From: an uncultured bacterium
GTDB taxonomy: Bacteria; Patescibacteriota; JAHJAL01
DNA: 64,000 nt
Assembly (NCBI GenBank): GCA_938004065.1
Contig: CALKWM010000041.1
Coordinates: 26,889 to 90,888 of the forward strand
Direction of reading: 5' to 3'
In this document: positions 15,100 to 39,206 of the stretch, piece by piece
Layout of the letters: the number at the start of each line of letters is the position of its first letter
How positions within the stretch are numbered: the first letter of the stretch is position 1
Translations under genes and position numbers: made by a program
Notes under the pieces: generated by a model
Told to the model about the DNA's origin: nothing
Seen by the model: only the letters and a program-made list of their open reading frames with translations
Database searches by the model: none

Positions 15100-15921
15100 A
15101 TGGAAAAACTCACTCAAAAACAACTCAAAGAAATAGCCAATGATATTCGTCGCGATATCATAAAAATGTTAGCGCGTGCCGGCTCCGGACACACAGCCGG
15201 TTCACTCGGTATGGCTGATGTATTTACCGCCCTTTATTTCAATATTTTGAATCATAATCCGAAAAATCCCAAGTGGCCGAATCGAGACCGCTTGATTCTC
15301 TCAAATGGCCATATTTGCCCGGTTTTATACGCCACATTGGCACACGCCGGCTATTTTCCTAAAAAAGATTTATCAACCCTCCGCCAACTTGGTAGTGGAT
15401 TGCAAGGGCATCCTCATCGGGGCTCTTTACCCGGTATTGAAAACACTTCCGGCCCGCTTGGTCAGGGATTGTCTCAATCCTGCGGTATGGCTCAAGCAGC
15501 CAAACTTGATGGAGAAAAACATCGTATATATTGTTTAACCTCCGATGGTGAACACAATGAAGGTCAAACCTGGGAAGCCATCATGTACGCCGGCAAATAC
15601 AAAATCAACAATTTAACCCAGATCATCGACCGTAACAATATCCAGATCGATGGCCACACCGAAAATGTGATGCCTCTGGAACCTCTTCGCAAAAAATATG
15701 AAGCATTTGGTTGGTATGTGATCGATATCGATGGTCACAATATGGAAGAAATTATCGACGCCTGCAATCATGCCAAGGCCGTTTATGAAAAACCCACTTT
15801 AATAATCGCCCACACTATCCCCGGCAAGGGAGTTGATTTCATGGAGAACGATCCTAAATGGCATGGCATCCCACCCACACCCGAACAAGCCAAACAAGCA
15901 CTAAAACAATTGGAGAAATAA
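15100..15921 (+). CDS. tkt: Transketolase, N-terminal (TPP pyrophosphate-binding) subunit of a split transketolase
   Basis: GSGHTAGSLGMADVFTALYF, GHICPVLYATLA, GHPHR, LGQGLSQSCGMA and CLTSDGEHNEGQTWEA. Confidence 0.88.
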   Translation: MEKLTQKQLKEIANDIRRDIIKMLARAGSGHTAGSLGMADVFTALYFNILNHNPKNPKWPNRDRLILSNGHICPVLYATLAHAGYFPKKDLSTLRQLGSGLQGHPHRGSLPGIENTSGPLGQGLSQSCGMAQAAKLDGEKHRIYCLTSDGEHNEGQTWEAIMYAGKYKINNLTQIIDRNNIQIDGHTENVMPLEPLRKKYEAFGWYVIDIDGHNMEEIIDACNHAKAVYEKPTLIIAHTIPGKGVDFMENDPKWHGIPPTPEQAKQALKQLEK

Positions 15922-16215
15922 ATGGGATATTTTTTTAGAATAATAATCTGGTTTTCATATCTAGGAATAATAACAAAAATTGACCACAAATATACATATC
16001 TTATTCTCGCTTTTTTAGATACAATAATTGGAATTATTCTCGATTTAATATCTCATGATTATGGTGAAAATTCATCTTTGTACAATCTATTTTTCTTAAT
16101 ATTTTTTGTTACAATTGTATTTATCAAAAACACAGTATATTTTTATTTACTACAAAAATCAGTTGGCACCTTTTGGTTCTATTTAATATTTCTTTTTGGG
16201 TTCTTATTTATCTAA
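15922..16215 (+). CDS. Hypothetical small membrane protein with three TM helices. Its ATG directly follows the tkt-N stop.
   Basis: 97-aa hydrophobic ORF translationally coupled to the preceding gene (TAA-ATG). No family was recognised. Confidence 0.35.
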   Translation: MGYFFRIIIWFSYLGIITKIDHKYTYLILAFLDTIIGIILDLISHDYGENSSLYNLFFLIFFVTIVFIKNTVYFYLLQKSVGTFWFYLIFLFGFLFI

Positions 16216-16303
16216 AAACGAATCTATTACATAGAGAAAAGAATTTAGAAAATATCATAACCAAGCCCTACTACAACAAAAAAACATAAGTTAATAATAT
16301 ATT

Positions 16304-17560
16304 ATGGAACCTCAAACTAACAAAGACAATTCATCAACATTTCCAAGTATTGGTCAGGTATTTACCAATTCATGGAAAACTTACAAAGAAAATTTTGGTA
16401 AATTTATTGCTGTTGCAGTTTTTATCTTGATATCCTATCTAGTTCTTTTTCTTATTACACAATACAGTGATTTTATATTGTCAATTATTGGCAATCAATC
16501 TGAAAACAATATTATTTATGCTTTACAGATTTTTGCAGTAATATCCTATCTTGTTTTAATAATTCTATATATTATCGCCATCATCAACTGGCAAACATAT
16601 TCCGTAATCTACATTTTCAAAAACAGAAATAACAACCCGAACGCAATCGAAGCCGTGAAATATGCGATCAAAAAAACCGGTACCGCTATTTGGACCAACC
16701 TGATTAAAAGCATCATTATCTTTGGAGGCAATTTATTGTTGGGCATTCCCGGACTAATACTAACAATCAATACCGTATTCTCAGATATTAGTATTGTTTA
16801 TAATCAGACCTCCGGTTATCAAGCACTATCAACCAGCCGGTATTATGCCAATGGCAAATGGTGGAGAATATTATTCTTTGTATTTTTACTGGGAGTAATA
16901 TATGGAACTTTATACCAAATTCAAGATATCGCAAACTTAATCCTCGAAAAAATAAACATTGTTAGTTATGTTCAAACAATTATCGATTATGTATTTATTT
17001 TTGTTTTCTCCGTATTGCTACCATTTTCAATAATTGTTCTGGGGCATATCTATGAATACCTACAACTCGAAAAATCACCGCCCTCTGAAGAAATAATTAT
17101 CAAAGATCGAAAAAAACTTATCTGGTATTTGGTGGGATCAATTCTATCAGTAATTGCAATCATGGTAATATTTATTGGCATGATTGGACTAATTCTAAGT
17201 CTCTATATCAATAATAACCCTTCAAAAAATTTGGATACAAATACCACCGAAGAATTATCTGATGATGTTAAATATCCTTATGGCATGACTATTGATCAAG
17301 AATTGGATAAATCGATTGAAAATATCAATCAATCCTTAAACAATTATTTTCAAGAGAATAATTATTTTCCATATTCCAACAATATTTCCACAGCAATAAC
17401 CGATGACTTCGAAATCCCTTATCAATGCGGGACCATCAACCAACCCGCTGAATTTTGCGGTATAAACTATCTATGGATCTCACCGGATAAATACCAACTG
17501 GAAATTAATTATTTCTCTGAAATAGACCAAACTGTCACATCGGTCCCAATATCCAAATAA
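16304..17560 (+). CDS. Hypothetical polytopic membrane protein with about six TM helices and a ~130-aa C-terminal extracytoplasmic domain holding a Cys pair
   Basis: The 418-aa ORF is strongly hydrophobic in periodic stretches. C-terminal segment CGTINQPAEFCG. No family was recognised. Confidence 0.5.
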   Translation: MEPQTNKDNSSTFPSIGQVFTNSWKTYKENFGKFIAVAVFILISYLVLFLITQYSDFILSIIGNQSENNIIYALQIFAVISYLVLIILYIIAIINWQTYSVIYIFKNRNNNPNAIEAVKYAIKKTGTAIWTNLIKSIIIFGGNLLLGIPGLILTINTVFSDISIVYNQTSGYQALSTSRYYANGKWWRILFFVFLLGVIYGTLYQIQDIANLILEKINIVSYVQTIIDYVFIFVFSVLLPFSIIVLGHIYEYLQLEKSPPSEEIIIKDRKKLIWYLVGSILSVIAIMVIFIGMIGLILSLYINNNPSKNLDTNTTEELSDDVKYPYGMTIDQELDKSIENINQSLNNYFQENNYFPYSNNISTAITDDFEIPYQCGTINQPAEFCGINYLWISPDKYQLEINYFSEIDQTVTSVPISK

Positions 17561-17579
17561 TTTCCCATACACATATACA

Positions 17580-18554
17580 ATGAAAAACAAAACCAAAAAA
17601 ATCAGAAAGCAAATATTTATCGAATCAATTCCAACCAGAAATGGTTACGGCGATGCTTTATTGGAATTAGGCAAAACCAATTCCAATGTCGTGGTTTTAA
17701 GCGGTGACCTGACCGAATCCACTCGGGCTGATAAATTTGCTAAAGAATATCCAAACAGATTTTTTCAATGCGGCGTAGCCGAACAAAATATGATGGGTAT
17801 TGCTGTCGGTATGGCCGTGGAAGGAAAAATTCCCTTCGTCTCCAGTTATGCTGTTTTTAATCCCGGCCGCAACTGGGATCAATTGCGCACCAATGTCTGT
17901 TACAACAACACAAATGTGAAAATTATCGGTGCTCACACCGGCGTATCAGTCGGTCCTGACGGTGCGACTCACCAAGCACTAGAAGACATTGCCATCACAC
18001 GTGTCCTGCCAAATTTAGTGGTTATCGCCCCTTTGGACTACCATGAAACCTACAAAGCCACTATCGCCGCCGCCAATTTTGATGGACCGGTCTATATCCG
18101 TTTCGCTCGTGAAAAAACTCCCCTTATCACCAATCCAAAAACATCATTTCAAATTGGCAAAGCAAATATTTTGAAACCGGGAACAGATATTACACTCATT
18201 GGTTGTGGACCAGTTCTAGCCAATGGATTAAAAGCGGCACATGAAATGGAAAAACAAGGTATATCAGTAGAAGTGATAAATTCTCACACCATCAAACCAC
18301 TCGATACTAAAACTATATTAAAATCAGTCAAAAAAACAAATCAAGTTATAACTCTTGAAGAACATCAAATTACCGGAGGTCTGGGGGGAGCTGTCTGCGA
18401 ATATTTGTCCGAGGTATATCCCGTCCCGATACACAGAATCGGCATGCCCGACACTTTTGGCGAATCAGGAACCCCAAACGAACTAATCGCCAAATACGGC
18501 ATGGACACTCAATCAATAACCAAAACTATCAAAATCTTTATAAATAATAAATAA
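17580..18554 (+). CDS. tkt: Transketolase, C-terminal (pyrimidine-binding + C-terminal domain) subunit
   Basis: GYGDALLELGKTNSNVVVLSGDLTESTRADKF, FQCGVAEQNMMGIAVGMA and GPDGATHQALEDIA. Confidence 0.88.
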   Translation: MKNKTKKIRKQIFIESIPTRNGYGDALLELGKTNSNVVVLSGDLTESTRADKFAKEYPNRFFQCGVAEQNMMGIAVGMAVEGKIPFVSSYAVFNPGRNWDQLRTNVCYNNTNVKIIGAHTGVSVGPDGATHQALEDIAITRVLPNLVVIAPLDYHETYKATIAAANFDGPVYIRFAREKTPLITNPKTSFQIGKANILKPGTDITLIGCGPVLANGLKAAHEMEKQGISVEVINSHTIKPLDTKTILKSVKKTNQVITLEEHQITGGLGGAVCEYLSEVYPVPIHRIGMPDTFGESGTPNELIAKYGMDTQSITKTIKIFINNK

Positions 18555-18661: not shown

Positions 18662-19636
18662 ATGAAACTCGACATTTTATCAATCGGCGACTGCACTATC
18701 GATGTTTTTCTCACACTGGTTGAGGGAAATGTGCAATGCAGTATTGACAAAAATTATTGCCAAATATGTTTTAACTATGGTGACAAAATTCCGGTTCGTG
18801 AAGTTATTCAAATTCCAGGAACCGGCAACGCCGCCAACCTGGCAATCGGCGCCAGTCGCTTGGGACTCAAAAGCGGCATCAATTGCATTATCGGCAACAA
18901 AACAGTTGGCGAAGCAATTATCAACAATTTCAAAAATGAAAAAGTAAATATCAAATATCTAATCAAAGATTTGAAATCTCCAACCAACTATTCCGCCATC
19001 CTAAACTATAAAGGCGAACGTACGATTTTCTCTCATCACGAGGATCGCCATTATCACCTCCCAAAAATTATCATCCCACCAAAATGGATATATCTGACAT
19101 CTGTTGGTCATGGTTATGAAAATCTCTACCAAAAAGTGGTTAAATATTGCCAAACCCATAATGTAAAATTGGGCTTTAATCCGGGTACTCTACAAATACG
19201 AAACGGTCTTTCAAAAATTAAAAATGTTATCGATCAGTCACAAGTGATCTTGGTCAACAAAGAAGAAGCCAACATGATACTAAATACTTCCAAAAAAGAC
19301 ATCAAATCACTACTTAAAAAACTCTTTGATCTCGGTCCCGATTATGCCGTTATCACCGATGGTCAAAATGGCGCGTATTCTTTTGACGGACATGAATTCA
19401 TCCACATACCCGCCACAAAAACAAATGTAGTTGAAAGAACCGGCGCCGGCGATGCTTTCTCAACCGGATTTATCTCCGCTATCATTCACGGTAAAAATCA
19501 TCGGGAAGCACTTGTTTGGGGCACGATGAACTCCGACGAAGTTATCAAATTTGTAGGTCCGCAAAAAGGACTTTTGACTTTGAAAAAAATAAAACACAAA
19601 GTCAAAAGTTGTCCGGTAAAAGTAAAAAATATCTAA
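18662..19636 (+). CDS. PfkB-family carbohydrate/nucleoside kinase (ribokinase-like)
   Basis: N-terminal GG-type motif (PGTGNAANLAIGASRLG) and the C-terminal PfkB anion-hole motif TGAGDAFSTGF. Confidence 0.8.
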   Translation: MKLDILSIGDCTIDVFLTLVEGNVQCSIDKNYCQICFNYGDKIPVREVIQIPGTGNAANLAIGASRLGLKSGINCIIGNKTVGEAIINNFKNEKVNIKYLIKDLKSPTNYSAILNYKGERTIFSHHEDRHYHLPKIIIPPKWIYLTSVGHGYENLYQKVVKYCQTHNVKLGFNPGTLQIRNGLSKIKNVIDQSQVILVNKEEANMILNTSKKDIKSLLKKLFDLGPDYAVITDGQNGAYSFDGHEFIHIPATKTNVVERTGAGDAFSTGFISAIIHGKNHREALVWGTMNSDEVIKFVGPQKGLLTLKKIKHKVKSCPVKVKNI

Positions 19637-19822
19637 AAATATCACAATGGAAATAAAAATCAAAATCAGTAAAAGTTCTATCAAAAGACTGCAACTTACT
19701 TTGGCCAGTATCGTATTATGTACAATATTATTTCTTTTCTAAAAACATTATCAATAATTTAACCATTTAACAATTTATCAATATTCATTTTTTTACAATA
19801 TTTCAATAAAACAAATATCATC

Positions 19823-20588: not shown

Positions 20589-23500
20589 ATGAGAAAACTA
20601 TTCTCAAATCTTATCGACAAAATATCCAAAAACCAAACCTATGCTTTGGTATTTGGCTTAATACTATTTATTGCCATAGTAATTGGCATTCCATATCTCG
20701 ACTCAATTAATAAAAATCAGACACTTGAACTAAACCACCCATTGACAGAACGAATTGGCGATAACCACAAAATTTCAACTCCCACAGACGAAACAGATTA
20801 TACCGTTCCATCAGAAAACGACAGTACAATAACAGCCAAAACCGATACGGATGAAACGGTTATTTCTGATAATTCATCATCAACTGTTAGCAATCAAACC
20901 AATATTTCAAACCAACCCTCAAACGACAATGACACTAGTTATGCCATCATTGACATTTCCTCAAACATTATCTCTCCCGTGCAGGACACCGAACCAATAG
21001 TTATCAACGAAACCGCTCCTTGGGATGAGGGATACTATCAATACCAGGATGATACAATCGAAGTTAAATTTGGCGACAAAGACGAACAAAATCCAAAAGT
21101 TACATACAAGGCACCTATTTGGCAAGACATAAACGGCGAGTTATTTAATTCAGTTTCCAATTGGCTCGATCGCATCACCAACCGTAATATCAAATCAATC
21201 GAATTTTCTCTGGTTGATGCTTATGATTCCAGAACCCAATCAGAACCCAAAATTGATCTTCCAATTTCCGATTTTGAATCTAGTTTTTGGAATCAAATCA
21301 AAAATTTCTTTGTACGAATTTTCGAAGACAATCCAAACAACATCTTATTGTTCCAAGAAGATGGCCACGACATAATTTTAAACAAAAGTGTTCTAAAAAA
21401 TATCAATGTCAAATATCAGATTTTAAATAATCGAGGAATCAAAGAAGAAATAGTTATTGTAAATAGAGACGATCTAAAAAACTCATTTGTCTTCAGTCTA
21501 AAACTGGACAAAGGGATGAAGTATAATCGCAACCAGGAAATGGTTGTTGATGCGCCGGCCAATGTCTATTATTTCTATGACGAACAAAATCGATACATTG
21601 CCCATTTCGTGTCACTTTATGCCGAGGATCAGGCCGGCGCCAAGACGGAAAACGTTACCATGAAAATTAGCCAACTTTCCGATACGGATCACAAGATAAC
21701 TATCACCGTCGATCCTGAATGGCTTTATAGCTCAGAACGTAAATTCCCGATAATCATCGACCCATCGATCGTCCACGACACCCAGACTGAATTTGATACC
21801 GCCAAATCGTTAAATCGGGTTACTACCAACGCCAATCCGTCGATCGAACTGTCCGGACCCCCATACAAAAATTATGGAGTTTATACTTCTGATGTAATCG
21901 ACTTTGGCATAGCTGACCCAAATCTATACAATATGATCTGGACCGAAAACGGAGTGCAGACCGGCAGTGGCGAAACCGATTTAACCACTAATGGACTGGT
22001 AGCCAAATGGAATTTCAATGAAACTTCCGGTACAAGTGTCAGCGATTCCTCCGGTAACGGCCACACCGGCACGCTAACCAATATGACTACCACTGGGCAG
22101 GACGCCAGCGTCAATTCCGGCTGGACGGCTAACAATAAAAAGTGGGGGACTGGATCCGTGATGTTTGACGGTTCAAATGATTATATTGATGTTCCATCAT
22201 TTACTTTTAATGAAAATGGTATATTTGCAGTCTCATTTTGGATGAATCCTGTAAAAACCGGTACAAATCTGCATTATTTATTGGATTTTCGCAACGCTGA
22301 TGCTAACGGACAAAGCGCAGTTATCAGTTATGATCATAACAACACGGGCGCGATCGATTACACTATCTTTGGCGAATCCAATTGGCATAATGGTACCATT
22401 CCGTTAAATGAGAGATCGTGGAACCATGTCGTGGTTATTCACAACTCAAACTCTAACAATTTAAAAACATACATAAATGGTCAATTAGATCAAAATGTCA
22501 GCGTTAATGATTTTACGATAACCGGCTCTCCTTTGAGAATCGGAGCCAGGAGACTCACCGGCGCCGCTCCCTATAAAGGTTCTATTGATGCGATAAAAAT
22601 ATTCAACCGTGATCTGTCGGAAAATGAAATTATATCACTATATAACTCTACCAACATCGAATTCCAGACCCGCACCGGCTCCGACGATAATCCCTATAAT
22701 GGTGGATGGGAAGAATGGAAACCGGCCGGATCGGGCACCGAAACACAATTAGACAGCTTTGATAATCAATTTCTCTATCCCACCAGCGAAACCGGTTTGA
22801 CCAACTACTGGCCAATGGATGAATTGTCCGGTTCAAACGTTGACGAACCGGTTAATTCAGCTGACGGCACCGCCACCGGCACTAAAATCATTGACGGTAA
22901 GTACGCCAAAGCCCGTTATTTTAACGGGACAAGTGATTATCTTTCCGTAACCAATAGTTCGGTCCTAAATCCGGGCAACAATTTTACTATTGAAAGTTGG
23001 ATCTATCAGCCGACTATCAGTGACAATGGGGCGATTATTAGTACACTGGATATTACAAATGGAGTAGTAACCAAAGGTTATGCTTTCAAAACAAATACCA
23101 GCTCATTATATGGTTGGAGGGCCAATAGTCTGATGTTACAATTGGGTACTCCCACCTGGAACTGGGGATATTGGACATCCCCAACCAACAGTTTGACTGC
23201 CGGTCGCTGGCACCATGTGGCTGTAACCGTGGCCAATGCCAATACTGCATCTAAAACCGTCTATTTTTACATCGACGGCAAACAATACCCCGGCGCTTTT
23301 TGGACCAATAACAGTCAACAAGTGGTCAATTTTAACACCAACACCACATCCAGCCGAATCGGTGGAATATATACTGCCACCATGCCTTCTTACAATACAA
23401 CATATTTCAACGGCAATATTGACGAACTAAAAATTTACAGCGCCATACTAAGCGCTGATCAAATCAGTCAAAAATATTTGGAAGGAAAAGAATTATTTAA

Positions 23501-26500
23501 TCTCCAACCATGTATATATCAAACCAACGACTCCGATATTAAAGTTGAAGGTTCTTATTCATCCAGAAATTCCTTTGGTCATGCTATTACCAGCCAAAAT
23601 CTCGTCGCTCTCTGGCACTTGGACGAAACCGGCGGTAGTGGGGCTTATCTGAAAGACAGTTCCGGTAACAACAACCACGCCACCCCTTCGAGTTCGAACA
23701 ACAATATTGAAAATGGCATTACCGGTAAAGGCAGAAAAACGGTAAATGGCGGCAATATCACTATTCCCGATTCAACATCGTTACGACCAGCCGGCGCTTT
23801 TTCCTTTAATTTTTGGATTAAAACTAATGGTTTAAACTCTACCGCCCAATCATATTTCATCAACAAAGAAACCTGGTCGTCGAGTGGCTGGGCAATTATG
23901 GATAATGGTTCCTATACCAGTGATGTTATGTTCAGAGTTTTACCATCGGGTACCGGAACTTGTGGAACGGGTGTAGCATGTATGAGCCGTACCCTGGTAA
24001 ATGACAACAACTGGCATATGATTTCCGGTGTTTATAATGGCTCTAATATTTTTTTGTATCTCGACGGTGTCCAAAAAGACAGCCGTAGTGCCGGCAGTTT
24101 TACTACCAGCAATAACAATGTTTTAATAAATCAAACAAGCGGTAGCGCCAATGGCGTCCTGATGGATGAAATATCAATCCATGGTACTGCATTGAGTGTT
24201 GATGAAATCAACGAATTATACCGTCTCGGCCGTGATCATTATGTGAACAACAACATTGACTCAATTGATCTAAGTGATAGCTCTAAAATCGCTTTTTATA
24301 CCGCCTCCGATCAACCAGGCGAAAATTATGATTTAATTGTTGGCGAATCCACCTTTGCCAACTACCAAACTGACGCTAACACAATTGGTTTGTGGCATTT
24401 AAATGATAAAACAAACAATATTTTTGACTCAAGTGGATACTACAACAACGGAACAACTTCAGGGACTACGGCTGTGAATGCTTATTTAGATTATGGCAGA
24501 TCATTTAACGGAACTAGTGACTGGATCAATATCGACAGTGAGGCCGCCGACATGCCCACCACTACCAGTAACCTATCCGTTTCCGCTTGGGTAAAATGGG
24601 ATGATGCTCCAACCACTAATGAAGTTGTGATTAGTTATGGAGGCAATAACAGCGCCACGGGCTGGTTGTTGCAATACGAAACTACCGGAAAAATTCAGTT
24701 TTCCGTTCGTAATGCAAATTCTGTATCATCCGGTATTACACCTGTCGGCGGACACTGGTACCACCTCACCGGCACCTATGACCATTCCAATGTCAAACTC
24801 TATATCGACGGACAACTGGTAGGTAGTTCGCCGGCCACATCGAATATTATCACCGCCACTACTCTTCGTTTTGGCAATGAATACAATCGCAGTTATTATT
24901 TTGATGGTGTTCTTGATGAGATAAGAATTGACAAAATCGCCCGCACTCCCGAAGAAATTCGCCAGGCCTATGAAATCGGCAAACGAACTCATTCCATCAC
25001 TTTCGACTTCGCCGCCGGCTTGGATAGTGCCAATACCATCAGTGGCTCCGGCGACTATTCATTCACCGTCGACGCCACCACCAAAGGATTAGGAACCAAA
25101 GGCGAGGGATTATATGTCGGCGACAAAATTATTATCAAAGAAAACTATGACGGTACTGAATACATCGCCCAAGGTATCGTCGAAGCCGTCAATCAAACTA
25201 CCGGCGCCACTGTCGTTTCCGCCTGGGATGTCGGCTCTACTTTCCCGTCAGGCGGATTTACTCAATACGCCGATGCTTTCAAATGGCAGCGGGAATACTT
25301 TGATCTGACCGGAATTCTGGATGATCATCTGGAAACCACTCAACTGATCACCATCCGCAAAACCACCGGCACCTCCGGCAGCACCATCTGGCTGGACGAT
25401 TTAAATTCAATCGATAGTTATCTGACGGATCCACTGGGCAGTGAAATTAACTCAAGTGATAATCAATATCTACAGTATCGGGCGATATTTACCACGCAGG
25501 ATGAAAACATCACCCCGTCAATTTCCGATGTTACCATCAATTTCGATAACGCACCCGAACCGTCATTTGATTCCGCCGACACCTCCCAGTCATCCATCAA
25601 CCTCAACAACCAGAATGCTTTCAACGTCCAGTGTCAGAATGCCATGGTCTATGCTTCGGGACAAACGGTCACCTGTCAGGGATCATGGGATAACAGCAAT
25701 TGGAACACGGTGGTCAGTACCACTTCACCCGTTTCCGGCACCATTCAGGGTACTCCAGATATTACAACCTGGACCGGCTATCCCGCTGACGGTAACGTTA
25801 CCATATACGTCCGCATGCTGGTTGAATCCACTCCTTACGGACCGGAGACGTTCAGTGTCACCAAGGACACCGTCCGACCAACCATAAACTCGATAAATTC
25901 CGTCGCCGGCGATACATCCGACCCATATCTCGACCCTACTGATGATGGTTCGACAATAGTCAGTTTAAACACCACCGACGCGAGTACCTGCCGTTGGGAT
26001 GAAAGTGACACCGACTACGCCAGCATGAGCAATACCTGCAGTTCACCAACCAATTGTGACTTGGATATGACTGGTGAGGGAGGTCATATTGTTTATTTCC
26101 AATGTATTGATTCCTCATCCAATTCTACTGCTAATTCCTATGAATTAACATATTCACTCACTTACCTGGAAGACTGGGACGGCATTCCCTATGCTTCCGA
26201 CAACTGTCCGGAGACATATAATCCCAATCAATCAGACATGGATGGGGACACTAGCGGCGACGCCTGTGACCCGGAAACTCTAATAAGCGCCAATACCACC
26301 TGGCCCGCGGGAGAATATAATTTCAAATATTTACATGTGACAAATAACGCCACTCTCACTCTAAACTCTAACACCGGTTCACCCTTCCCCGGTGTCAGTA
26401 TTACTGGTGAAAACATCACCGTTGATAATGGATCAAAAATAAGTGCTGACCAAAAAGGTTACGGCAGTGCTCAAGGGCCCGGGGCCGGTGCAAATGGAAA

Positions 26501-29500
26501 CACCGTGTTGCAACCTGTCGGTGGTACCGGCGCTGATCATGGCAGTCGTGGCGGTAACGGCATCAATCATACCAATAACGATAATTCATATGGCAATGCT
26601 TATGAACCGACTACTTTGGGCAGTGGTGGTGGTAGTGAAGATTCCTTTCATAACACTTATGGTGGTCCTGGTGGTGGAGCCATCAAAATAAATATTTCTG
26701 GTATCCTGACAAATAACGGAATTATAAGCACCAACGCCGGCAATGCCATTTTTAGCGGTTACGGCATTCCACAAGGTAGCGGCGGCGGATCCGGCGGTAG
26801 TATCTGGATTATAACTAATACTATAAATGGTAATGGTAGTATCCAATCCAATGGTGGTGCGGCCACCACCGGCGCCAACTGCTCAAACTGTTACGGTGGC
26901 GGTGGTTCGGGCGGACGTATCAGTATCAATTTTTCTACAAGCAATTATGCTGGCGCAATTAAAGCCATGGGTGGTACCGGTCATCAGCAAGGAGAAGACG
27001 GCACAATTTCTTACAACGGCAACATGTCGAATTCGTGCGACACCGGCAATCCTTTTAGTCATTGTTATATTGATCAAATTCACCACTTACCGAACAATCT
27101 ATCCTACAAATACAATAATCTTACCATCGAATCAGGCGGTCAGATGGAGTTTAAAGATGATTATACCGGCACACTGGAGCCTGGCAATTTATCAATTGAG
27201 ACTGATGGTATGATTAAAATCGACAACTCAGCCGAAATTGATATCACCGGGGTCAATACTATTGATATAGATGGGGAAATATATCTCGAATCGGGCACAT
27301 CCGGAAATCATAGTGTTTTATCGCTCAGCGGTGATGATATTACCATCTCAGGTAATTCGGTCGAAGGCGAGCGCTGGTCGGAAATAAATATTCATGCTAA
27401 TGACGCTTTATTGGTGGATGGATTAGTCAAAGCTACCTGGATCGATATAACCGGCGACAATTTTAATATAACTTCAAGTGGACAAATTATAACCGACACA
27501 TTGGGACACCCCAGCACTTCCGGTCCCGGAGCCGGTTCGTATGGTAATTCCACCCTGGGACCGGTAGGCGCTACTGGCGCCGGTCATGGTGCTGTTGGTG
27601 GCGACGGCTATGATCATACTCCAGGCGGTTCCAGCTATGGCGATCAAAATGCCCCGGTTGATCTCGGTTCAGGTGGTGGTAGCCAAAACTCTTCTTATCC
27701 CGATTTTGGTGGTCCTGGTGGCGGCGCTTTAAAAATTAATTTAAATGGTACTTTAAACAATAACGGTCTTATCAGTAGTAATGCTAGCGATGCCATTTAC
27801 AGTGGTTATGGTTTTCCTCAAGGTTCCGGTGGTGGTTCCGGCGGTAGTATATGGATAATCTCTGACGCATTAAATGGTAGCGGTCAAATTGAAGCCGATG
27901 GCGGCGATGGTAACGATGGTATTAACGCTCCGGTAGCTTATGGTGGTTGCGGTTCCGGCGGCAGGATTAAAATTGAATATGTCACAAATAGTTTTACTGG
28001 CGATGTCACCGCCGACGGTGGCACGATCGGTCATGCCGTTCCTTGTTCAGCCGGTTCTATCGTCTACACTCAAAATTCTTCAAGTTTACCACGGGTTAAT
28101 TCGATCACTTCAGTTGCCGGTGATACATCTTTACCCTATGAAGACACTACGGATAACAGTCAAACGCTGGTTGAATTCACCACCTTAAACAGCCCAACCA
28201 ACGTCAAATGGGATACCATCGATACCAACTATGATTCCATGACCAATAGTTGTGGCAGTATTACTCAATGTTTGCTTGATCTATCCGGCAACGGTGTTAA
28301 AACCGTCTATTTCCGGGCCACCGATGGTTCCGGTAATAACTCGGCCTCCTCCTATGTTTTGCAATACACCATCAATGACACATCAGTTTCGGAGCCATTT
28401 GTCAGTGCTATTATCTCTGTGGCCGGTGATGACACCCCGCCATATGTCGATGTCAGCGATGACGAACACACAATGGTTAATTTTTCTACCATCAATAATT
28501 CAACCAATGTCAAATGGGATAACACTGACACCGACTACGATAGTATGTCCAATAGTTGTGACAGCATAACTGAATGTGACTTGAATCTTGCCGGCGACGG
28601 TATTCACGTTGTTTATTTCCGCGCCACTGATGGTTCAGGAAATAAATCGTCTTCTTCAACCCAACTACAATACACTATCCGACAAACAGAATATTCTAAT
28701 CAACTCAGTAGTTCATTTCCTTCCGAAAATGACTTAACTCTAACTGTTAGTTTTAAACCCAGTTTTTCTGAACCCATCACCGACGGCAGTATCAAACTAA
28801 TCATGGATGATGAATTTGACTTTAGCGGTTTGACTATCAATGATGTCTCCGCCAGTGGTGGCGATGTCACCTGGACCAATGACGAGCAGATCTATGCCGG
28901 TGGAATTCAAATCGCGAGATCAAATATTCCATTTGTAAGTATTGCTAAGGCTCAAGGAGAAAATTCCATTACCTTTAACTTCACCGGTGATATTTCTTCT
29001 GAAGATGGAGAGATAACTTTCATCATTGGTGGCTTAAATCAACCCGGTAATCCACCCACCGAAGGACCATATAGTTACATCCTCGAATGGTATGAAGAAA
29101 ATAACGCCGGTGGTTCACCTTTGTATATTCAGGACGGTAAAGTACATATCAATACCGGCACAACAGTTTCCGCTTCAGTACCGACTGCTTTTTCATTTAT
29201 CATCGATCCGGTTGGTACGGGCACCGTCAATGGCGCCAACATCACCACCTCCACCACAACCGGCAATACTGCCAATTTTGGAACATTCACTTCCGCCGAC
29301 GATCGCATTGCCGCCCATGACCTCATTGTCTCTACCAACTCGACCAGCGGTTACATTATCACTACTCAGTATTCCGGACTATTTTCTTCCGCTACTGACA
29401 ATATGAATAATTTTACCGGATCAAATACCGCACCAACCACCTGGACCACACCCCCCGGATCCGGAGTGGAAAGCTATTTTGCTTATACAACTAATGATTC

Positions 29501-29711
29501 TTCACTCTTGAATTCTTCAACAGACAGATTTACCTCTTCCGGTGGCAATAAATGGGCCTCCTTCGCTACCACTCCCTCCGAAGTGTCATATTCCAACACT
29601 GCCGTGATAGATGAAACCACCAGAGTAGGATACCGTCTGGAAATTACCAATCTGCAACCGGCCGGCATATATTCCACAAATGTCATGTATATCGCTACAC
29701 CAACATTCTAA
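20589..29711 (+). CDS. Giant (3040 aa) cell-surface multidomain protein. It has an N-terminal signal-anchor, 4-5 LamG/concanavalin-A-like lectin domains, one thrombospondin type-3 Ca-binding repeat, two ~348-aa Gly-rich beta-helix-like repeats, three ~95-aa Cys-containing Ig-like modules and a C-terminal ~190-aa domain shared with the next gene.
   Basis: Single uninterrupted ORF. LamG_3-type motifs (LVAKWNFNETSGTSVSDSSGNGHTGTL, GSIDAIKIFNRDLSENEI and paralogous copies). TSP3 repeat DWDGIPYASDNCPETYNPNQSDMDGDTSGDACDP. Duplicated GGPGGGA(I/L)KIN … SGGGSGGSIWII blocks. Three …SVAGDTSxPYxD…KWDxxDTDYxSMxNSCxSxTxC…VYF… modules. Confidence 0.85.
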   Translation: MRKLFSNLIDKISKNQTYALVFGLILFIAIVIGIPYLDSINKNQTLELNHPLTERIGDNHKISTPTDETDYTVPSENDSTITAKTDTDETVISDNSSSTVSNQTNISNQPSNDNDTSYAIIDISSNIISPVQDTEPIVINETAPWDEGYYQYQDDTIEVKFGDKDEQNPKVTYKAPIWQDINGELFNSVSNWLDRITNRNIKSIEFSLVDAYDSRTQSEPKIDLPISDFESSFWNQIKNFFVRIFEDNPNNILLFQEDGHDIILNKSVLKNINVKYQILNNRGIKEEIVIVNRDDLKNSFVFSLKLDKGMKYNRNQEMVVDAPANVYYFYDEQNRYIAHFVSLYAEDQAGAKTENVTMKISQLSDTDHKITITVDPEWLYSSERKFPIIIDPSIVHDTQTEFDTAKSLNRVTTNANPSIELSGPPYKNYGVYTSDVIDFGIADPNLYNMIWTENGVQTGSGETDLTTNGLVAKWNFNETSGTSVSDSSGNGHTGTLTNMTTTGQDASVNSGWTANNKKWGTGSVMFDGSNDYIDVPSFTFNENGIFAVSFWMNPVKTGTNLHYLLDFRNADANGQSAVISYDHNNTGAIDYTIFGESNWHNGTIPLNERSWNHVVVIHNSNSNNLKTYINGQLDQNVSVNDFTITGSPLRIGARRLTGAAPYKGSIDAIKIFNRDLSENEIISLYNSTNIEFQTRTGSDDNPYNGGWEEWKPAGSGTETQLDSFDNQFLYPTSETGLTNYWPMDELSGSNVDEPVNSADGTATGTKIIDGKYAKARYFNGTSDYLSVTNSSVLNPGNNFTIESWIYQPTISDNGAIISTLDITNGVVTKGYAFKTNTSSLYGWRANSLMLQLGTPTWNWGYWTSPTNSLTAGRWHHVAVTVANANTASKTVYFYIDGKQYPGAFWTNNSQQVVNFNTNTTSSRIGGIYTATMPSYNTTYFNGNIDELKIYSAILSADQISQKYLEGKELFNLQPCIYQTNDSDIKVEGSYSSRNSFGHAITSQNLVALWHLDETGGSGAYLKDSSGNNNHATPSSSNNNIENGITGKGRKTVNGGNITIPDSTSLRPAGAFSFNFWIKTNGLNSTAQSYFINKETWSSSGWAIMDNGSYTSDVMFRVLPSGTGTCGTGVACMSRTLVNDNNWHMISGVYNGSNIFLYLDGVQKDSRSAGSFTTSNNNVLINQTSGSANGVLMDEISIHGTALSVDEINELYRLGRDHYVNNNIDSIDLSDSSKIAFYTASDQPGENYDLIVGESTFANYQTDANTIGLWHLNDKTNNIFDSSGYYNNGTTSGTTAVNAYLDYGRSFNGTSDWINIDSEAADMPTTTSNLSVSAWVKWDDAPTTNEVVISYGGNNSATGWLLQYETTGKIQFSVRNANSVSSGITPVGGHWYHLTGTYDHSNVKLYIDGQLVGSSPATSNIITATTLRFGNEYNRSYYFDGVLDEIRIDKIARTPEEIRQAYEIGKRTHSITFDFAAGLDSANTISGSGDYSFTVDATTKGLGTKGEGLYVGDKIIIKENYDGTEYIAQGIVEAVNQTTGATVVSAWDVGSTFPSGGFTQYADAFKWQREYFDLTGILDDHLETTQLITIRKTTGTSGSTIWLDDLNSIDSYLTDPLGSEINSSDNQYLQYRAIFTTQDENITPSISDVTINFDNAPEPSFDSADTSQSSINLNNQNAFNVQCQNAMVYASGQTVTCQGSWDNSNWNTVVSTTSPVSGTIQGTPDITTWTGYPADGNVTIYVRMLVESTPYGPETFSVTKDTVRPTINSINSVAGDTSDPYLDPTDDGSTIVSLNTTDASTCRWDESDTDYASMSNTCSSPTNCDLDMTGEGGHIVYFQCIDSSSNSTANSYELTYSLTYLEDWDGIPYASDNCPETYNPNQSDMDGDTSGDACDPETLISANTTWPAGEYNFKYLHVTNNATLTLNSNTGSPFPGVSITGENITVDNGSKISADQKGYGSAQGPGAGANGNTVLQPVGGTGADHGSRGGNGINHTNNDNSYGNAYEPTTLGSGGGSEDSFHNTYGGPGGGAIKINISGILTNNGIISTNAGNAIFSGYGIPQGSGGGSGGSIWIITNTINGNGSIQSNGGAATTGANCSNCYGGGGSGGRISINFSTSNYAGAIKAMGGTGHQQGEDGTISYNGNMSNSCDTGNPFSHCYIDQIHHLPNNLSYKYNNLTIESGGQMEFKDDYTGTLEPGNLSIETDGMIKIDNSAEIDITGVNTIDIDGEIYLESGTSGNHSVLSLSGDDITISGNSVEGERWSEINIHANDALLVDGLVKATWIDITGDNFNITSSGQIITDTLGHPSTSGPGAGSYGNSTLGPVGATGAGHGAVGGDGYDHTPGGSSYGDQNAPVDLGSGGGSQNSSYPDFGGPGGGALKINLNGTLNNNGLISSNASDAIYSGYGFPQGSGGGSGGSIWIISDALNGSGQIEADGGDGNDGINAPVAYGGCGSGGRIKIEYVTNSFTGDVTADGGTIGHAVPCSAGSIVYTQNSSSLPRVNSITSVAGDTSLPYEDTTDNSQTLVEFTTLNSPTNVKWDTIDTNYDSMTNSCGSITQCLLDLSGNGVKTVYFRATDGSGNNSASSYVLQYTINDTSVSEPFVSAIISVAGDDTPPYVDVSDDEHTMVNFSTINNSTNVKWDNTDTDYDSMSNSCDSITECDLNLAGDGIHVVYFRATDGSGNKSSSSTQLQYTIRQTEYSNQLSSSFPSENDLTLTVSFKPSFSEPITDGSIKLIMDDEFDFSGLTINDVSASGGDVTWTNDEQIYAGGIQIARSNIPFVSIAKAQGENSITFNFTGDISSEDGEITFIIGGLNQPGNPPTEGPYSYILEWYEENNAGGSPLYIQDGKVHINTGTTVSASVPTAFSFIIDPVGTGTVNGANITTSTTTGNTANFGTFTSADDRIAAHDLIVSTNSTSGYIITTQYSGLFSSATDNMNNFTGSNTAPTTWTTPPGSGVESYFAYTTNDSSLLNSSTDRFTSSGGNKWASFATTPSEVSYSNTAVIDETTRVGYRLEITNLQPAGIYSTNVMYIATPTF

Positions 29712-30063
29712 CGAGCAATTTTCAAGTTCTAAGTTTTAAGTATCAAGTAAAACACAATACATAAAGCACAATATCTCAATATTTCAATATCTAATTTTTA
29801 TTCAAATGAAAACAAAAATCAAAAACATCAAGCATGCACAGATGATGACAATTATGCTCATCTCCATCTTCACCATCCTGCTCAACAATCTGGGCAACAT
29901 GTATTAAACTCTATAATATTTACCAAAAAATTTATTAACAAAAACAAAAATGAAAAAAATTCTGTCCTTTCTAGCCAATTTATTTGACAACAACGGCATG
30001 TCGATGATTTGCAAAAAAGAACTTGGATTCACAATCCGCAAAGTAAAATAATTCTTTACTTCC

Positions 30064-30747
30064 ATGACAAATCGGTATCACAAATACTTTTCGATTCTGT
30101 TAATTTCGTTGCTCACTACAACAACCTATTTGTCAATTCAAAAACACTCTCATGCTCAAACACTAACCGAGACTAGAAACACAACCATTACCGTCTCCAT
30201 CCCGCAACATCTTACTTTTATTATCAATGGAGTCAACACCGGCGACCCCTGTCCCAATGCCAGTGTCGCCGAACTCGCCGAAATTGATTCTACGGCTACT
30301 GATATCGATTATGGCACATTCAACGGCGCCAATCGAAAAATCGCCTGCCAGGAAACTATCGTTACCACCAACGCCGCATCCGGCTACCGTCTCACAATCC
30401 AACAAGACCATCCGATTCAATCATCACCCACAGTACAGATTAGTAATTTCCAGGGTTCATCCGGCTCCGCCGACACCTGGACCACACCGGAAACCTGGTC
30501 TTCACCAACCGCCACTCATCATTCATACTTTGGATTTTCCACCAGTGACACCATCGATTACTCCAGGTTCTCACTAAATCGTTACGGCAGTTTTCAATCG
30601 GACGCAACCGAGCACGAAATCGCCTCCGCCCCCGGACCGGTTATCGACGACACCAACCACATCTCCTTTCAACTCGAAACCGACGACCTCCAAGCTTCCG
30701 GTAATTACTCAAATACTGTTACCTATATTGTTACTGCTTATTTTTAG
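30064..30747 (+). CDS. Secreted protein: a signal peptide followed by the same ~190-aa C-terminal domain found at the end of the giant protein
   Basis: Signal peptide MTNRYHKYFSILLISLLTTTTYLSIQKHSHAQT. Four blocks match the giant's C-terminus, for example DYGTFNGANRKIACQETIVTTNAASGYRLTIQ vs NFGTFTSADDRIAAHDLIVSTNSTSGYIITTQ. Both proteins carry TWTTP and a terminal …Y(I/V)xTxxF. Confidence 0.7.
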   Translation: MTNRYHKYFSILLISLLTTTTYLSIQKHSHAQTLTETRNTTITVSIPQHLTFIINGVNTGDPCPNASVAELAEIDSTATDIDYGTFNGANRKIACQETIVTTNAASGYRLTIQQDHPIQSSPTVQISNFQGSSGSADTWTTPETWSSPTATHHSYFGFSTSDTIDYSRFSLNRYGSFQSDATEHEIASAPGPVIDDTNHISFQLETDDLQASGNYSNTVTYIVTAYF

Positions 30748-38297: not shown

Positions 38298-39206
38298 ATG
38301 GGCAAAAATCAAATCATTGAAACAAAAATCGGCAACAAAATCTGGATAGATATCACCAATCCGACACACAAAAAACTTATCGAATTCAAAGATAAATATA
38401 AAATCCACGAAGCCGATATCCATGACGCCATGGATAAAGTTGTAATTCCAAAAACATTTGAACATAAAAATTACTTATTCATTGCCATCCATGCCATTCA
38501 TTATTCAAACAACCAAATCAATTTACAAGAAATAGATTTCTTCTTTTCCAAACACTTTATTATTACCATTCACAATCAGCCAATAGATTTTCTGGACAAT
38601 ATCTGTGAAGAAATATACCCGGAGATATCTTGCCACAACACCGCCCATGTTCTTTTTAGAATCCTTAAACACATCAATATTTCTCAAAGAGAAATTATCA
38701 AAAATTATGCCAACGACATCAATCAATTGGAAATTGACATCACCACTGAAAAAAACAATGAACGAAAAACCATCAGTAACATTCTCTCAATTCGCAAAAA
38801 CATCTTACAACTAATCAACGTTTCCCAACCTAACATCGTGGTCATCAAAGAAATTCATAAGTCAGATATTATAAAAAACAGTTTCAGTAACTATCAGGTA
38901 TATTTTGACAGTTTGGTTGAATCTCAAGAAAAGTCATATAACATGCTCAAGCACTATCTGGAAGTTACTAACGGTTTGATCGATACGATTAACATTATGG
39001 TCAATTATCGTTTTAACGATATTATCAAAATTTTAACCATAGTCTCAGTTTCGCTACTTCCCCTTACACTTATTTCCGGAATTTTGGGTATGAATTTTTC
39101 CAGTTCCATCTTTGATATGCCATACGGTTTTACCATTACTATCATTTTTATGATTCTTTTGGAAATATTAATAATTCAATATTTTAAATACAAAAAATGG
39201 CTCTAA
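38298..39206 (+). CDS. corA: CorA-family Mg2+/Co2+ transporter
   Basis: Two C-terminal TM helices with the GMNF signature (ILGMNFSSSIFDMPYGF). Confidence 0.8.
   Translation: MGKNQIIETKIGNKIWIDITNPTHKKLIEFKDKYKIHEADIHDAMDKVVIPKTFEHKNYLFIAIHAIHYSNNQINLQEIDFFFSKHFIITIHNQPIDFLDNICEEIYPEISCHNTAHVLFRILKHINISQREIIKNYANDINQLEIDITTEKNNERKTISNILSIRKNILQLINVSQPNIVVIKEIHKSDIIKNSFSNYQVYFDSLVESQEKSYNMLKHYLEVTNGLIDTINIMVNYRFNDIIKILTIVSVSLLPLTLISGILGMNFSSSIFDMPYGFTITIIFMILLEILIIQYFKYKKWL

Follow-up and report, generated by a model that had tools for sequence, protein, structure and literature searches.

The Pam pili of the CPR bacterium Candidatus Mycosynbacter amalyticus comprise the pilins PamA, PamB and PamE, the tip protein PamT, the chaperones PamC and PamD and the anchor PamR (bioRxiv 10.64898/2026.03.03.709456; NF058581). 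In the operon described in 2026, PamA and PamB are each built of two all-beta domains with a single strand connecting them while PamT, the proposed tip subunit, is a small single domain, and the text of the preprint is silent on adhesins, LamG and fusions (bioRxiv 10.64898/2026.03.03.709456). In haloarchaea, TafC is the proposed tip protein of Tat-fimbriae that are assembled by strand donation (PMC11821415, PMC12337348). The giant protein described here, encoded in a 64-kb stretch of CPR DNA (the window), has a C-terminal module that resembles the Pam pilins but, unlike them, is part of a fusion with 2700 aa of lectin and stalk sequence. With slightly better than even confidence we read it as a head-stalk-pilin adhesin of a CPR bacterium, joined to a fibre via donor-strand exchange. 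The features of the gene and its neighbour are as follows.

20589..29711, forward strand: giant ORF, 3040 aa and stop codon, same protein in three assemblies
20640..20699, forward strand: aa 18-37, sole N-terminal hydrophobic segment, export signal or signal-anchor (sequence, hydropathy scan)
20706..21968, forward strand: aa ~40-460, conserved family-specific N-terminal domain, in most of the best 120 homologues
22167..22631, forward strand: Laminin_G_3 domain 1, aa 527-681, unit start about aa 465 (Pfam, 81 bits)
22923..23468, forward strand: Laminin_G_3 domain 2, aa 779-960 (Pfam, 72 bits)
23748..24212, forward strand: Laminin_G_3 domain 3, aa 1054-1208 (Pfam, 60 bits)
24507..24959, forward strand: Laminin_G_3 domain 4, aa 1307-1457 (Pfam, 112 bits)
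24999..25874, forward strand: 'mid' domain, aa 1471-1762, conserved, family-specific (homologue comparison)
25875..26171, forward strand: Cys module 1, aa 1763-1861, four Cys (internal-repeat and homologue comparison)
26172..26276, forward strand: thrombospondin type-3 (Ca-binding type) repeat, aa 1862-1896, DNCPETYNPNQSDMDGDTSGDACD
26277..27437, forward strand: Gly-rich unit 1, aa 1897-2283, probable beta-solenoid with Gly-rich loops (internal repeats, AF2, Foldseek)
27438..28088, forward strand: Gly-rich unit 2, aa 2284-2500, truncated copy (internal repeats, AF2)
28089..28688, forward strand: Cys modules 2 and 3, aa 2501-2600 and 2601-2700 (internal-repeat and homologue comparison)
28689..29159, forward strand: N-terminal beta-sandwich of the pilin module ('preC'), aa 2701-2857, corresponding to the NTD of two-domain Pam-like pilins
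29160..29216, forward strand: conserved connecting strand TVSASVPTAFSFIIDPVGT, in the position of the Pam linker/donor strand
29217..29708, forward strand: Pam-like pilin C-terminal Ig-like domain (CTD), aa 2877-3040 (NF058581 match, AF2, fold searches)
30064..30747, forward strand: partner gene, 227-aa minimal pilin, uncalled in the NCBI record

A very long, repetitive ORF from a metagenome-assembled genome invites the suspicion of faulty assembly, faulty annotation or pseudogene decay, to which we attach practically no probability. The reading frame is open across all 3040 codons with zero internal stops, and syntenic orthologues of 3282 and 3039 aa keep the module order of the window protein. 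The identical protein is found on contigs of NCBI GCA_036848155.1, ENA ERZ724098 and Logan SRR6007447; the agreement of these three independent assemblies rules out a frameshift or chimera artefact, so that the single intact ORF of the initial annotation, for which frameshifts had been the concern, stands. Its elevated GC, as also described there, holds against the remainder of the window (0.440 vs 0.369), with a modest enrichment at third positions (GC3 0.43 vs 0.40 for the 21 other genes) except in the 'mid' domain (GC3 0.57).

Far from being an isolated oddity, the giant belongs to a large, as yet unnamed CPR family of LamG/DUF2341 surface proteins ('LamG domain-containing protein', NCBI), in which about 115 of the best 120 homologues share the N-terminal domain and 'mid' as well as LamG domains in varying number. 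Most of these homologues stop after 'mid', which is thus their C-terminal domain, whereas the stalk of Cys modules and the pilin module are confined to a subset comprising the window protein, P0002-P0007, P0009 and the giant of locus L008. The N-terminal domain gave zero matches in Pfam, NCBIfam and PDB sequence searches. Pfam bears out the LamG type proposed in the initial annotation, but with four rather than four to five domains, which extend over nt 22167-24959; the earlier range of 21970-24250 left the fourth domain outside. This LamG-type region aligns with TafC positions 149-363, and both proteins would pair a lectin-like part with a strand-donation fibre, as proposed here for the giant. 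With a score of 105 bits where the equivalog cut-off is 410, however, only the jelly-roll domain is common to the two, and TafC is archaeal, Tat-exported and tied to an unrelated pilin.

Between 'mid' and the pilin module, the three Cys-pair modules of about 95 aa and the canonical TSP3 repeat (at about 26170-26280) noted earlier are all recovered. The Cys modules, of about 97 aa, share 47-57% pairwise identity and a CxxxxxC motif; the Ig-like fold assigned to them is weakly suggested by matches to Big_13, HYR and OmpL47, all of them sub-threshold. The TSP3 repeat scores 27.0 bits against TSP_3, above the gathering score of 25, and may bind Ca. The two Gly-rich blocks, given as near-duplicates of about 348 aa, do form a pair with a period of 349 aa, but at 50-58% identity and with the second one truncated they are paralogous copies, and their AF2 model (pLDDT 75; top Foldseek E-value 0.01) points weakly to the parallel beta-helix that had been suggested. 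Repeat number does differ between orthologues, with 2-9 Cys modules and 0-3 Gly units, as expected of a spacer. Structurally, the Gly-rich model comes closest, though weakly, to PL6 alginate lyases and phage tailspikes, and the orthologue P0003 gives a weak Glyco_hydro_16 match, as might befit a secreted polysaccharide- or cell-wall-degrading enzyme in which the LamG domains served as carbohydrate-binding modules and the lyase or hydrolase was the Gly-rich solenoid. We consider such an enzyme very improbable: the Foldseek E-values are 0.01 or worse, Pfam, NCBIfam and PDB sequence searches gave zero significant catalytic families for any segment, and most orthologues do without Gly-rich units.

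Judged by sequence and model, the last 340 residues are a complete pilin module of beta-sandwich, conserved strand and Ig-like CTD, the AF2 model (pLDDT 90.9) presenting two all-beta domains linked via one strand, as in Pam pilins. The CTD, through the last 150 aa of the protein, matches the NCBIfam model CPR_Pam_pilin_C (NF058581) over profile positions 2-148 of 148 (E 6.5e-8), its 32.8 bits falling short of the curated cut-off of 55 bits; 41 of the 43 aligned relatives likewise match end to end, and the score lies under the cut-off in every tested clade member, those from Saccharibacteria included. Kinship to the solved Pam pilins is therefore one of remote homology and operon layout, and the module would form a divergent sister clade. 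In the connecting strand V160, V164, F170 and V175 are near-invariant in A2, with the model strand at E168-175; this strand, which is also found in operon-encoded giants, may serve as a donor strand or may just be the one with which the CTD fold begins. As a query, the module retrieved secreted CPR proteins of about 350-390 aa (E down to 1e-47, coverage up to 100%), and fold searches led to fibre subunits, adhesins and pilins, among them FimH, CupB6, CfaE, Saf, TasA, TasA-like protein (TLP), CsuA/B, Gram-positive pilins and MSCRAMMs. Searching 1.84 billion representatives with a profile gave 3415 matches in which the module is nearly always C-terminal, and 19 of the best 150 exceed 1000 aa (maximum 6399 aa), marking it as a recurrent C-terminal handle on large proteins. 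The 'shared C-terminal anchor' of the initial annotation is indeed shared, the last 180 aa being 34% identical to the product of the ORF at 30064-30747 (E 6e-27), but it is a Pam-related pilin module rather than an unknown anchor, which changes the proposed display mechanism.

At more than 30 loci from WWE3, Woesebacteria, Levyibacteriota, Saccharibacteria and other CPR, a stand-alone homologue of the module is flanked by two paralogous chaperone-like genes, each with signal peptide and C-terminal TM helix, and a third signal-peptide/C-terminal-TM gene with Ig/Big domains, the membrane-anchor gene, often comes next. This is the PamC / pilin / PamD / PamR layout (bioRxiv 10.64898/2026.03.03.709456). 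At least 13 such operons carry, directly upstream of the first chaperone-like gene, a gene for a protein of 540 to >2845 aa that ends precisely in a divergent copy of this CTD; Laminin_G_3 domains occur in five of these proteins.

The giant's own locus differs from the Pam operon in that chaperone and anchor genes are lacking, with no chaperone-like or PamR-like gene within the 64-kb window or beside the full-module giants at the window locus, L004-L006, L008 and L055, and in that its partner is a minimal pilin. The product of 30064..30747 has a cleavable-looking signal peptide, the conserved strand, a Pam-like CTD and one Cys pair while the NTD is absent. In L055 an orthologue of this minimal pilin (52% identical) begins 4 nt beyond the orthologous giant gene, and by this comparison the gene pairing is conserved in a relative. 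In L008 the giant gene is followed by a two-domain pilin gene, in L005 and L006 additional giant genes with the same pilin module adjoin, and in L053 the pilin position between the two chaperone-like genes is taken by such a minimal pilin; L004, the locus of the closest orthologue, has no small pilin gene downstream of the giant.

The architecture, the module homology, the operon context of the stand-alone relatives and the conserved gene pair, all observed computationally, are the basis on which we propose how the head-stalk-pilin adhesin would work. Following export through Sec, the N domain, four LamG/ConA-like lectin domains and 'mid' would form the head, a candidate ligand-binding part that may recognize host or substrate glycans. 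A length-variable stalk, made up of the Cys-pair modules, a single TSP3 repeat of the Ca-binding type and both Gly-rich solenoid units, would set this head apart from the C-terminus. The pilin module would engage in non-covalent donor-strand exchange with other subunits of its family, among which the minimal pilin encoded immediately downstream is the leading candidate, such that the giant would sit on a thin membrane-tethered fibre, either at its distal end or along its length. The LamG, TSP3, internal-repeat and shared C-terminal calls of the initial annotation hold, and a putative surface-adhesin role is still the most sensible reading in this CPR genome, with its proposed display now through a Pam-type pilin module.

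The N-terminus may count against a fibre, in that the hydrophobic segment, if uncleaved, would hold the head at the membrane of the producing cell. Sequence and hydropathy scan reveal no obvious AxA site after this 20-aa segment, which is plausibly a signal-anchor; among the homologues, some N-termini are clear AxA signal peptides and others long anchors. The giant could then be an N-terminally anchored surface fibril whose helix probably remains in the membrane, as in many family members ending after 'mid', with the pilin-like module serving as a distal Ig-like cap or homotypic interaction domain rather than in fibre assembly. The lack of chaperone-like genes nearby fits such a fibril, and most homologues, being devoid of any C-terminal anchor, depend on the N-terminus for attachment. 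We nevertheless regard it as unlikely, since the giant retains 39 of the 50 columns in which stand-alone pilins reach >=85% conservation across strand and CTD, the dedicated minimal pilin gene beside it is conserved, and the related giants P0006, P0007 and P0010 share the N domain yet have clear cleavable signal peptides. The topology would also be unusual, with binding domains at the cell's own membrane and the 'stalk' pointing outward. Less probable still is a decorated shaft or matrix subunit that, by means of its full pilin module, polymerizes with itself, neighbouring giant paralogues or the minimal pilin into a bottle-brush fibre or TasA-like extracellular matrix scaffold, with a role in aggregation or biofilms instead of in recognizing a host from a pilus tip. 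The packing of 2700-aa N-terminal extensions on every subunit is hard to picture, a LamG head on a variable stalk is what adhesins typically show, and no direct evidence favours such a subunit over the head-stalk-pilin reading.

As a head-stalk-pilin adhesin, the giant would correspond in CPR to the tip adhesins of FimH/PapG type. With the chaperone-usher tip adhesins (FimH, PapG, CfaE, CupB6), which appear among the Foldseek matches to its module, it shares an N-terminal lectin part, a C-terminal pilin domain and, as we infer, strand complementation to a shaft. It differs in having neither outer membrane nor usher, in being ten times larger and in its long repeat stalk; sequence homology was not detected and TM-scores are low, about 0.2. 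Gram-positive head-stalk-anchor and sortase pilus tip adhesins (MSCRAMMs, for example FnBPA and SdrG; RrgA and GBS104 type) similarly combine head, repeat stalk and C-terminal attachment element on a monoderm envelope, and these adhesins are structural neighbours of the module. Conversely, the giant, which terminates in ...NVMYIATPTF, has no LPXTG, C-terminal TM helix or basic tail, and its proposed attachment is non-covalent. If this reading is true, the protein provides a concrete candidate for the way in which ultra-small CPR/Patescibacteria grip their host.

The gene of the giant (20589..29711, forward strand) reads as 3040 uninterrupted codons, and its product is identical in three independent assemblies, GCA_036848155.1 (on the 171-kb contig DAIUKQ010000003.1), ENA ERZ724098 and Logan SRR6007447. 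The same module order recurs in two syntenic orthologues, P0002 (3282 aa, locus L004) and P0003 (3039 aa, locus L055), and a frameshift or chimera artefact is thereby excluded, frameshifts in the reads having been named in the initial annotation as a possible refutation. The high GC noted earlier for the gene is borne out overall (0.440 vs 0.369 for the remaining window) but only slightly at third codon positions (0.43 vs 0.40 in the other genes), and since that excess is so small a foreign origin is rejected as the overall explanation. This leaves unaccounted for the 'mid' domain (24999-25874), where GC3 reaches 0.57 as against 0.38-0.47 in the other modules of the giant and ~0.40 in other genes. 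A promoter and terminator scan around the giant and minimal-pilin genes gave counts not above those of shuffled sequence. The features of the two proteins, both encoded on the forward strand, are as follows.

Giant, aa ~40-460: N domain, family-specific, without a Pfam, NCBIfam or PDB match
Giant, aa 527-681, 779-960, 1054-1208 and 1307-1457: Laminin_G_3 domains 1-4 (Pfam)
Giant, aa 1471-1762: 'mid' domain, conserved
Giant, aa 1763-1861: Cys module 1, followed by the thrombospondin type-3 repeat
Giant, period 349 aa: Gly-rich units 1 and 2, 50-58% identical, unit 2 truncated
Giant, aa 2501-2700: Cys modules 2 and 3, 47-57% identical to module 1
Giant, aa 2701-3040: predicted C-terminal pilin module
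Minimal pilin (ORF 30064-30747): N-terminal strand of the mature protein, QTLTETRNTTITVSIPQHLTFII

The array of four or five LamG domains proposed earlier consists of real domains, all of which pass the PF13385 threshold of 27.6 (60-112 bits, Pfam), although they number four and the last lies beyond the end assigned to the array. The thrombospondin type-3 repeat held up, scoring 27.0 bits against the PF02412 gathering threshold of 25, with the motif DNCPETYNPNQSDMDGDTSGDACD readable in the sequence (the DxDxDGxxDxxD type, for which a flanking Cys pair is a family criterion). For the Gly-rich blocks, taken in the initial annotation for beta-helices, the AF2 model (pLDDT 75) presents short strands in repeated triplets with a solenoid-like appearance, and its top PDB neighbours in Foldseek are all right-handed beta-helices (PL6 lyases, Ag43, TibA, pertactin, tailspikes), at a best E of 0.01, the others being worse, and TM ≤0.3. 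A Pfam search of the sub-segments gave no Beta_helix match, and a sub-threshold match to AgmC_N was all that Pfam and NCBIfam returned for these units. Because of the pLDDT and of Foldseek E values of 0.01 or worse, the predicted beta-helix fold is plausible rather than established. The three Cys modules were likewise found as described, while the Ig-like fold attributed to them is weakly suggested by sub-threshold matches to Big_13, HYR and OmpL47. The same sub-segment searches yielded no family for the N domain or 'mid', and PDB sequence searches with the N domain, 'mid' plus Cys module 1, the Gly-rich units and the pilin-module profile returned nothing meaningful.

The N domain, LamG arrays and 'mid' domain are common to ~115 of the 120 best full-length homologues, those that are named coming from Dojkabacteria/WS6, Amesbacteria and other CPR. 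Most of them end after 'mid', so the stalk and pilin module represent an addition in a subset. Repeat number, singled out earlier as a point for comparison between orthologues, does vary in the stalk (2-9 Cys modules, 0-3 Gly-rich units).

The C-terminal module is best considered against the filaments of the CPR bacterium Ca. Mycosynbacter amalyticus, which cryo-EM has shown to contain the pilins PamA and PamB, each with a beta-sandwich N-terminal domain (NTD), one linker strand and a truncated Ig-like C-terminal domain (CTD), assembled by donor-strand exchange (Troman et al., 2026; bioRxiv 10.64898/2026.03.03.709456). The pam operon also encodes the PapD-like chaperones PamC and PamD with C-terminal TM helices, the membrane anchor PamR and PamT, a small single-domain protein proposed as the tip subunit (Troman et al., 2026). 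The last 180 aa of the giant match the NF058581 model (CPR_Pam_pilin_C) over profile positions 2-148 of 148 (32.8 bits, E 6.5e-8), and the product of ORF 30064-30747 gives a second full-length match (22.6 bits), both below the curated cut-off of 55 bits. Every tested member of the clade, those of Saccharibacteria included, also falls below this cut-off, and for that reason we treat the clade as a divergent, pam-like sister clade, placed by its score against the family model. A shared C-terminal anchor had been noticed from the sequence, and the last 180 aa of the giant are indeed 34% identical to the minimal pilin (E 6e-27). With aa 2701-3040 as query, the homologues are secreted proteins of ~350-390 aa, at a query coverage of up to 100%. 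Against the pilin profile the giant scores 328 bits across the full module of NTD, strand and CTD, retaining 39 of the 50 conserved strand and CTD positions. The AF2 model, built on an alignment of 120 homologues of the module, has a pLDDT of 90.9 and comprises 11 strands, a strand at 168-175 and then a 7-strand CTD; this predicted two-domain, one-strand architecture is the one reported for PamA and PamB. Fold searches with the module matched pilins, tip adhesins, MSCRAMMs and TasA-type fibre subunits, with no Pam entry among the matches, the PDB copy searched holding no Pam structures. By profile and by predicted structure, the C-terminus of the giant is a pilin module.

The minimal pilin, the 227-aa product of the next gene, starts with a typical signal peptide (SHA/Q). 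A 52%-identical orthologue follows the giant in L055, starting 4 nt downstream, and establishes it as a real, conserved gene. The ORF is called in the ENA assembly, the NCBI and Logan calls placing an 80-aa opposite-strand ORF there instead (19575-19817 of the fetched locus L001); a conserved pilin gene has thus been missed by the NCBI annotation of this genome. The spacer between the two genes, 352 bp in the window as against 4 nt in L055, contains two 33-aa forward-strand ORFs found in the ENA record only, 29806-29907, whose product is hydrophobic, and 29950-30051.

The wider distribution of the module was assessed in 43 loci fetched from species-representative genomes and several metagenome loci. 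In more than 30 loci the stand-alone homologue lies almost always between two paralogous genes whose products have a signal peptide and a C-terminal TM helix. A third protein of this build, with Ig/Big domains, is often next, and these loci reproduce the layout PamC, pilin, PamD, PamR. In at least 13 canonical operons of this kind (L009/L023, L027, L031, L034, L035, L037-L040, L042, L045, L053, L054) the first chaperone-like gene is directly preceded by a gene for a protein of 540 to >2845 aa, which ends exactly in a divergent CTD copy. Laminin_G_3 domains occur in five of these operon-encoded giants, and the conserved strand, a candidate donor strand, is present in them as well. A profile search of 1.84 billion representatives retrieved 3415 proteins, almost all of which have the module at the C-terminus; of the best 150 matches, 19 exceed 1000 aa, the longest having 6399 aa.

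The giant of the window belongs to a second class, which has a full module and whose genes have no chaperone gene near them. The next gene after such a giant is usually of the same family: a minimal pilin in the window and in L055, a two-domain pilin in L008, and more giants in both L005 and L006. No such partner follows the giant in L004, the locus of the closest orthologue. The pilin slot between the two chaperone-like genes of L053 is filled by a minimal pilin of this type, so subunits lacking the NTD could plausibly build a shaft. The regions L005 3-16065 and L006 3-22770 carry two to three giant genes in tandem (~2400, 3350-3590 and 6399 aa), all ending in a Pam-like pilin module, the upstream one having Beta_helix domains in place of LamG.

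The named relatives belong to CPR lineages (Patescibacteria, WWE3, Woesebacteria, Levyibacteriota, Saccharibacteria, Parcubacteria). For the family as a whole there is one possible exception, the MAG JBGAQY01 (L047-L052), labelled Acidimicrobiales and with a GC of 0.57-0.58, which encodes, in tandem, many proteins of 450-590 aa with a Pam-like CTD at the end (25-33% identity); no chaperone-like genes lie near them in these loci. If this MAG is not a binning error, the domain exists outside CPR, against the exclusivity stated for it (Troman et al., 2026). A full pam-like operon in a 'Nanoarchaeia' MAG (L042) probably reflects mis-binning, and many contigs with canonical pam-like operons titled 'uncultured Gammaproteobacteria' or 'Pseudomonadales' (L010-L033, L044; TPA MAG records) have a gene content which suggests that they are CPR genomes with wrong labels.

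Elsewhere in the window, 50824-53802 (reverse strand) encodes a 992-aa protein with an N-terminal TM segment and matches to TraG-D_C and TrwB_AAD_bind, as in VirD4/TraG-type coupling proteins, and with the neighbouring minus-strand genes (~47-63 kb) probably forms a type IV secretion cluster typical of Patescibacteria. Transketolase (15100-18554, forward strand) is divided into separate N- and C-terminal genes, between which lie a 97-aa ORF and a 418-aa multi-pass membrane protein in the window and a ~94-aa ORF only in L004 and L055. CysS (39197-40603, forward strand) forms a tight clade with 'Patescibacteria group bacterium' relatives (64-82% identity), and the next-best matches, at ~50%, are mostly archaeal (Bathyarchaeia, Woesearchaeota, Nanoarchaeia), an indication that the cysteinyl-tRNA synthetase of this lineage is of archaeal type.

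Beyond the giant and ORF 30064-30747, the 64-kb window contains no CTD-bearing, chaperone-like or PamR-like gene, whereas two membrane-anchored PapD-like chaperones and a PamR-like anchor accompany the stand-alone homologues in the 30+ loci. The outer-membrane usher and periplasmic chaperone genes of a FimH/PapG-type cluster were not found in the window either; the source organism is taken to be a monoderm CPR bacterium. The combination of an N-terminal binding domain with a C-terminal pilin domain would be analogous to that of FimH and PapG; Foldseek matches of the pilin module to FimH, CupB6 and CfaE have E ~1e-3 but TM ~0.2. The giant reaches 105 bits against the equivalog cut-off of 410 for TafC (NF052521), the LamG-like part alone aligning, and it ends in ...STNVMYIATPTF, lacking the motif, hydrophobic helix and basic tail of sortase LPXTG proteins. 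Its sole hydrophobic segment is N-terminal (aa 18-37), has no clear cleavage site and may be a Sec signal like that of Pam pilins; the signal of the partner ORF is of the typical kind. The main rival interpretation takes this N-terminal helix for the actual anchor and the pilin module for a distal cap.

A head-stalk-pilin adhesin is the best-supported reading of the giant. A stalk whose length varies would keep the LamG head off the cell. Attachment would be non-covalent: the pilin module would join the protein to family subunits that make up a fibre or an anchor, presumably by strand exchange and in a tip or lateral position, and the neighbouring minimal pilin is the likeliest candidate for shaft or linker. 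Such a protein would work in the manner of the FimH/PapG tip adhesins, though in a monoderm and with no usher; N-terminal cleavage, a need for chaperones, and Ca and ligand binding are further inferred steps. The parts of the giant are of known kinds (LamG, TSP3, Pam-type pilin, tip-adhesin logic), but the following appear to be undescribed: a giant lectin protein fused to a complete Pam-like pilin module, a minimal-pilin gene conserved as its partner, and CTD-terminated giants recurring as first gene in pam-like operons. Contact of the pilins with the host envelope is stated as not known in the report on Pam, the text of which does not mention adhesins, LamG or fusions (Troman et al., 2026).

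A broader proposal, which we hold to be tentative and somewhat unlikely, is that giant LamG proteins with a Pam-type pilin C-terminus are the missing host-recognition subunits of CPR Pam-type pili and that the module is a general means of sortase-free, non-covalent display of very large proteins on monoderms, here maybe as a two-gene fibre of giant and minimal pilin without dedicated chaperones, like TasA and archaeal strand-donation fibres. How CPR episymbionts locate their hosts and stay attached to them is, to our knowledge, still largely obscure. Large lectin-rich proteins with a C-terminal pilin domain point to a recurrent and testable answer, in two settings: as first gene of pam-like operons or, in the window, standing on their own next to a minimal-pilin gene. 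Should this be true, variable LamG heads on variable-length stalks would be candidate specificity determinants, strand exchange would provide sortase-free surface display in a monoderm, host range would be open to study from genomes, and the question of host contact left open for Pam pili (Troman et al., 2026) would become testable.
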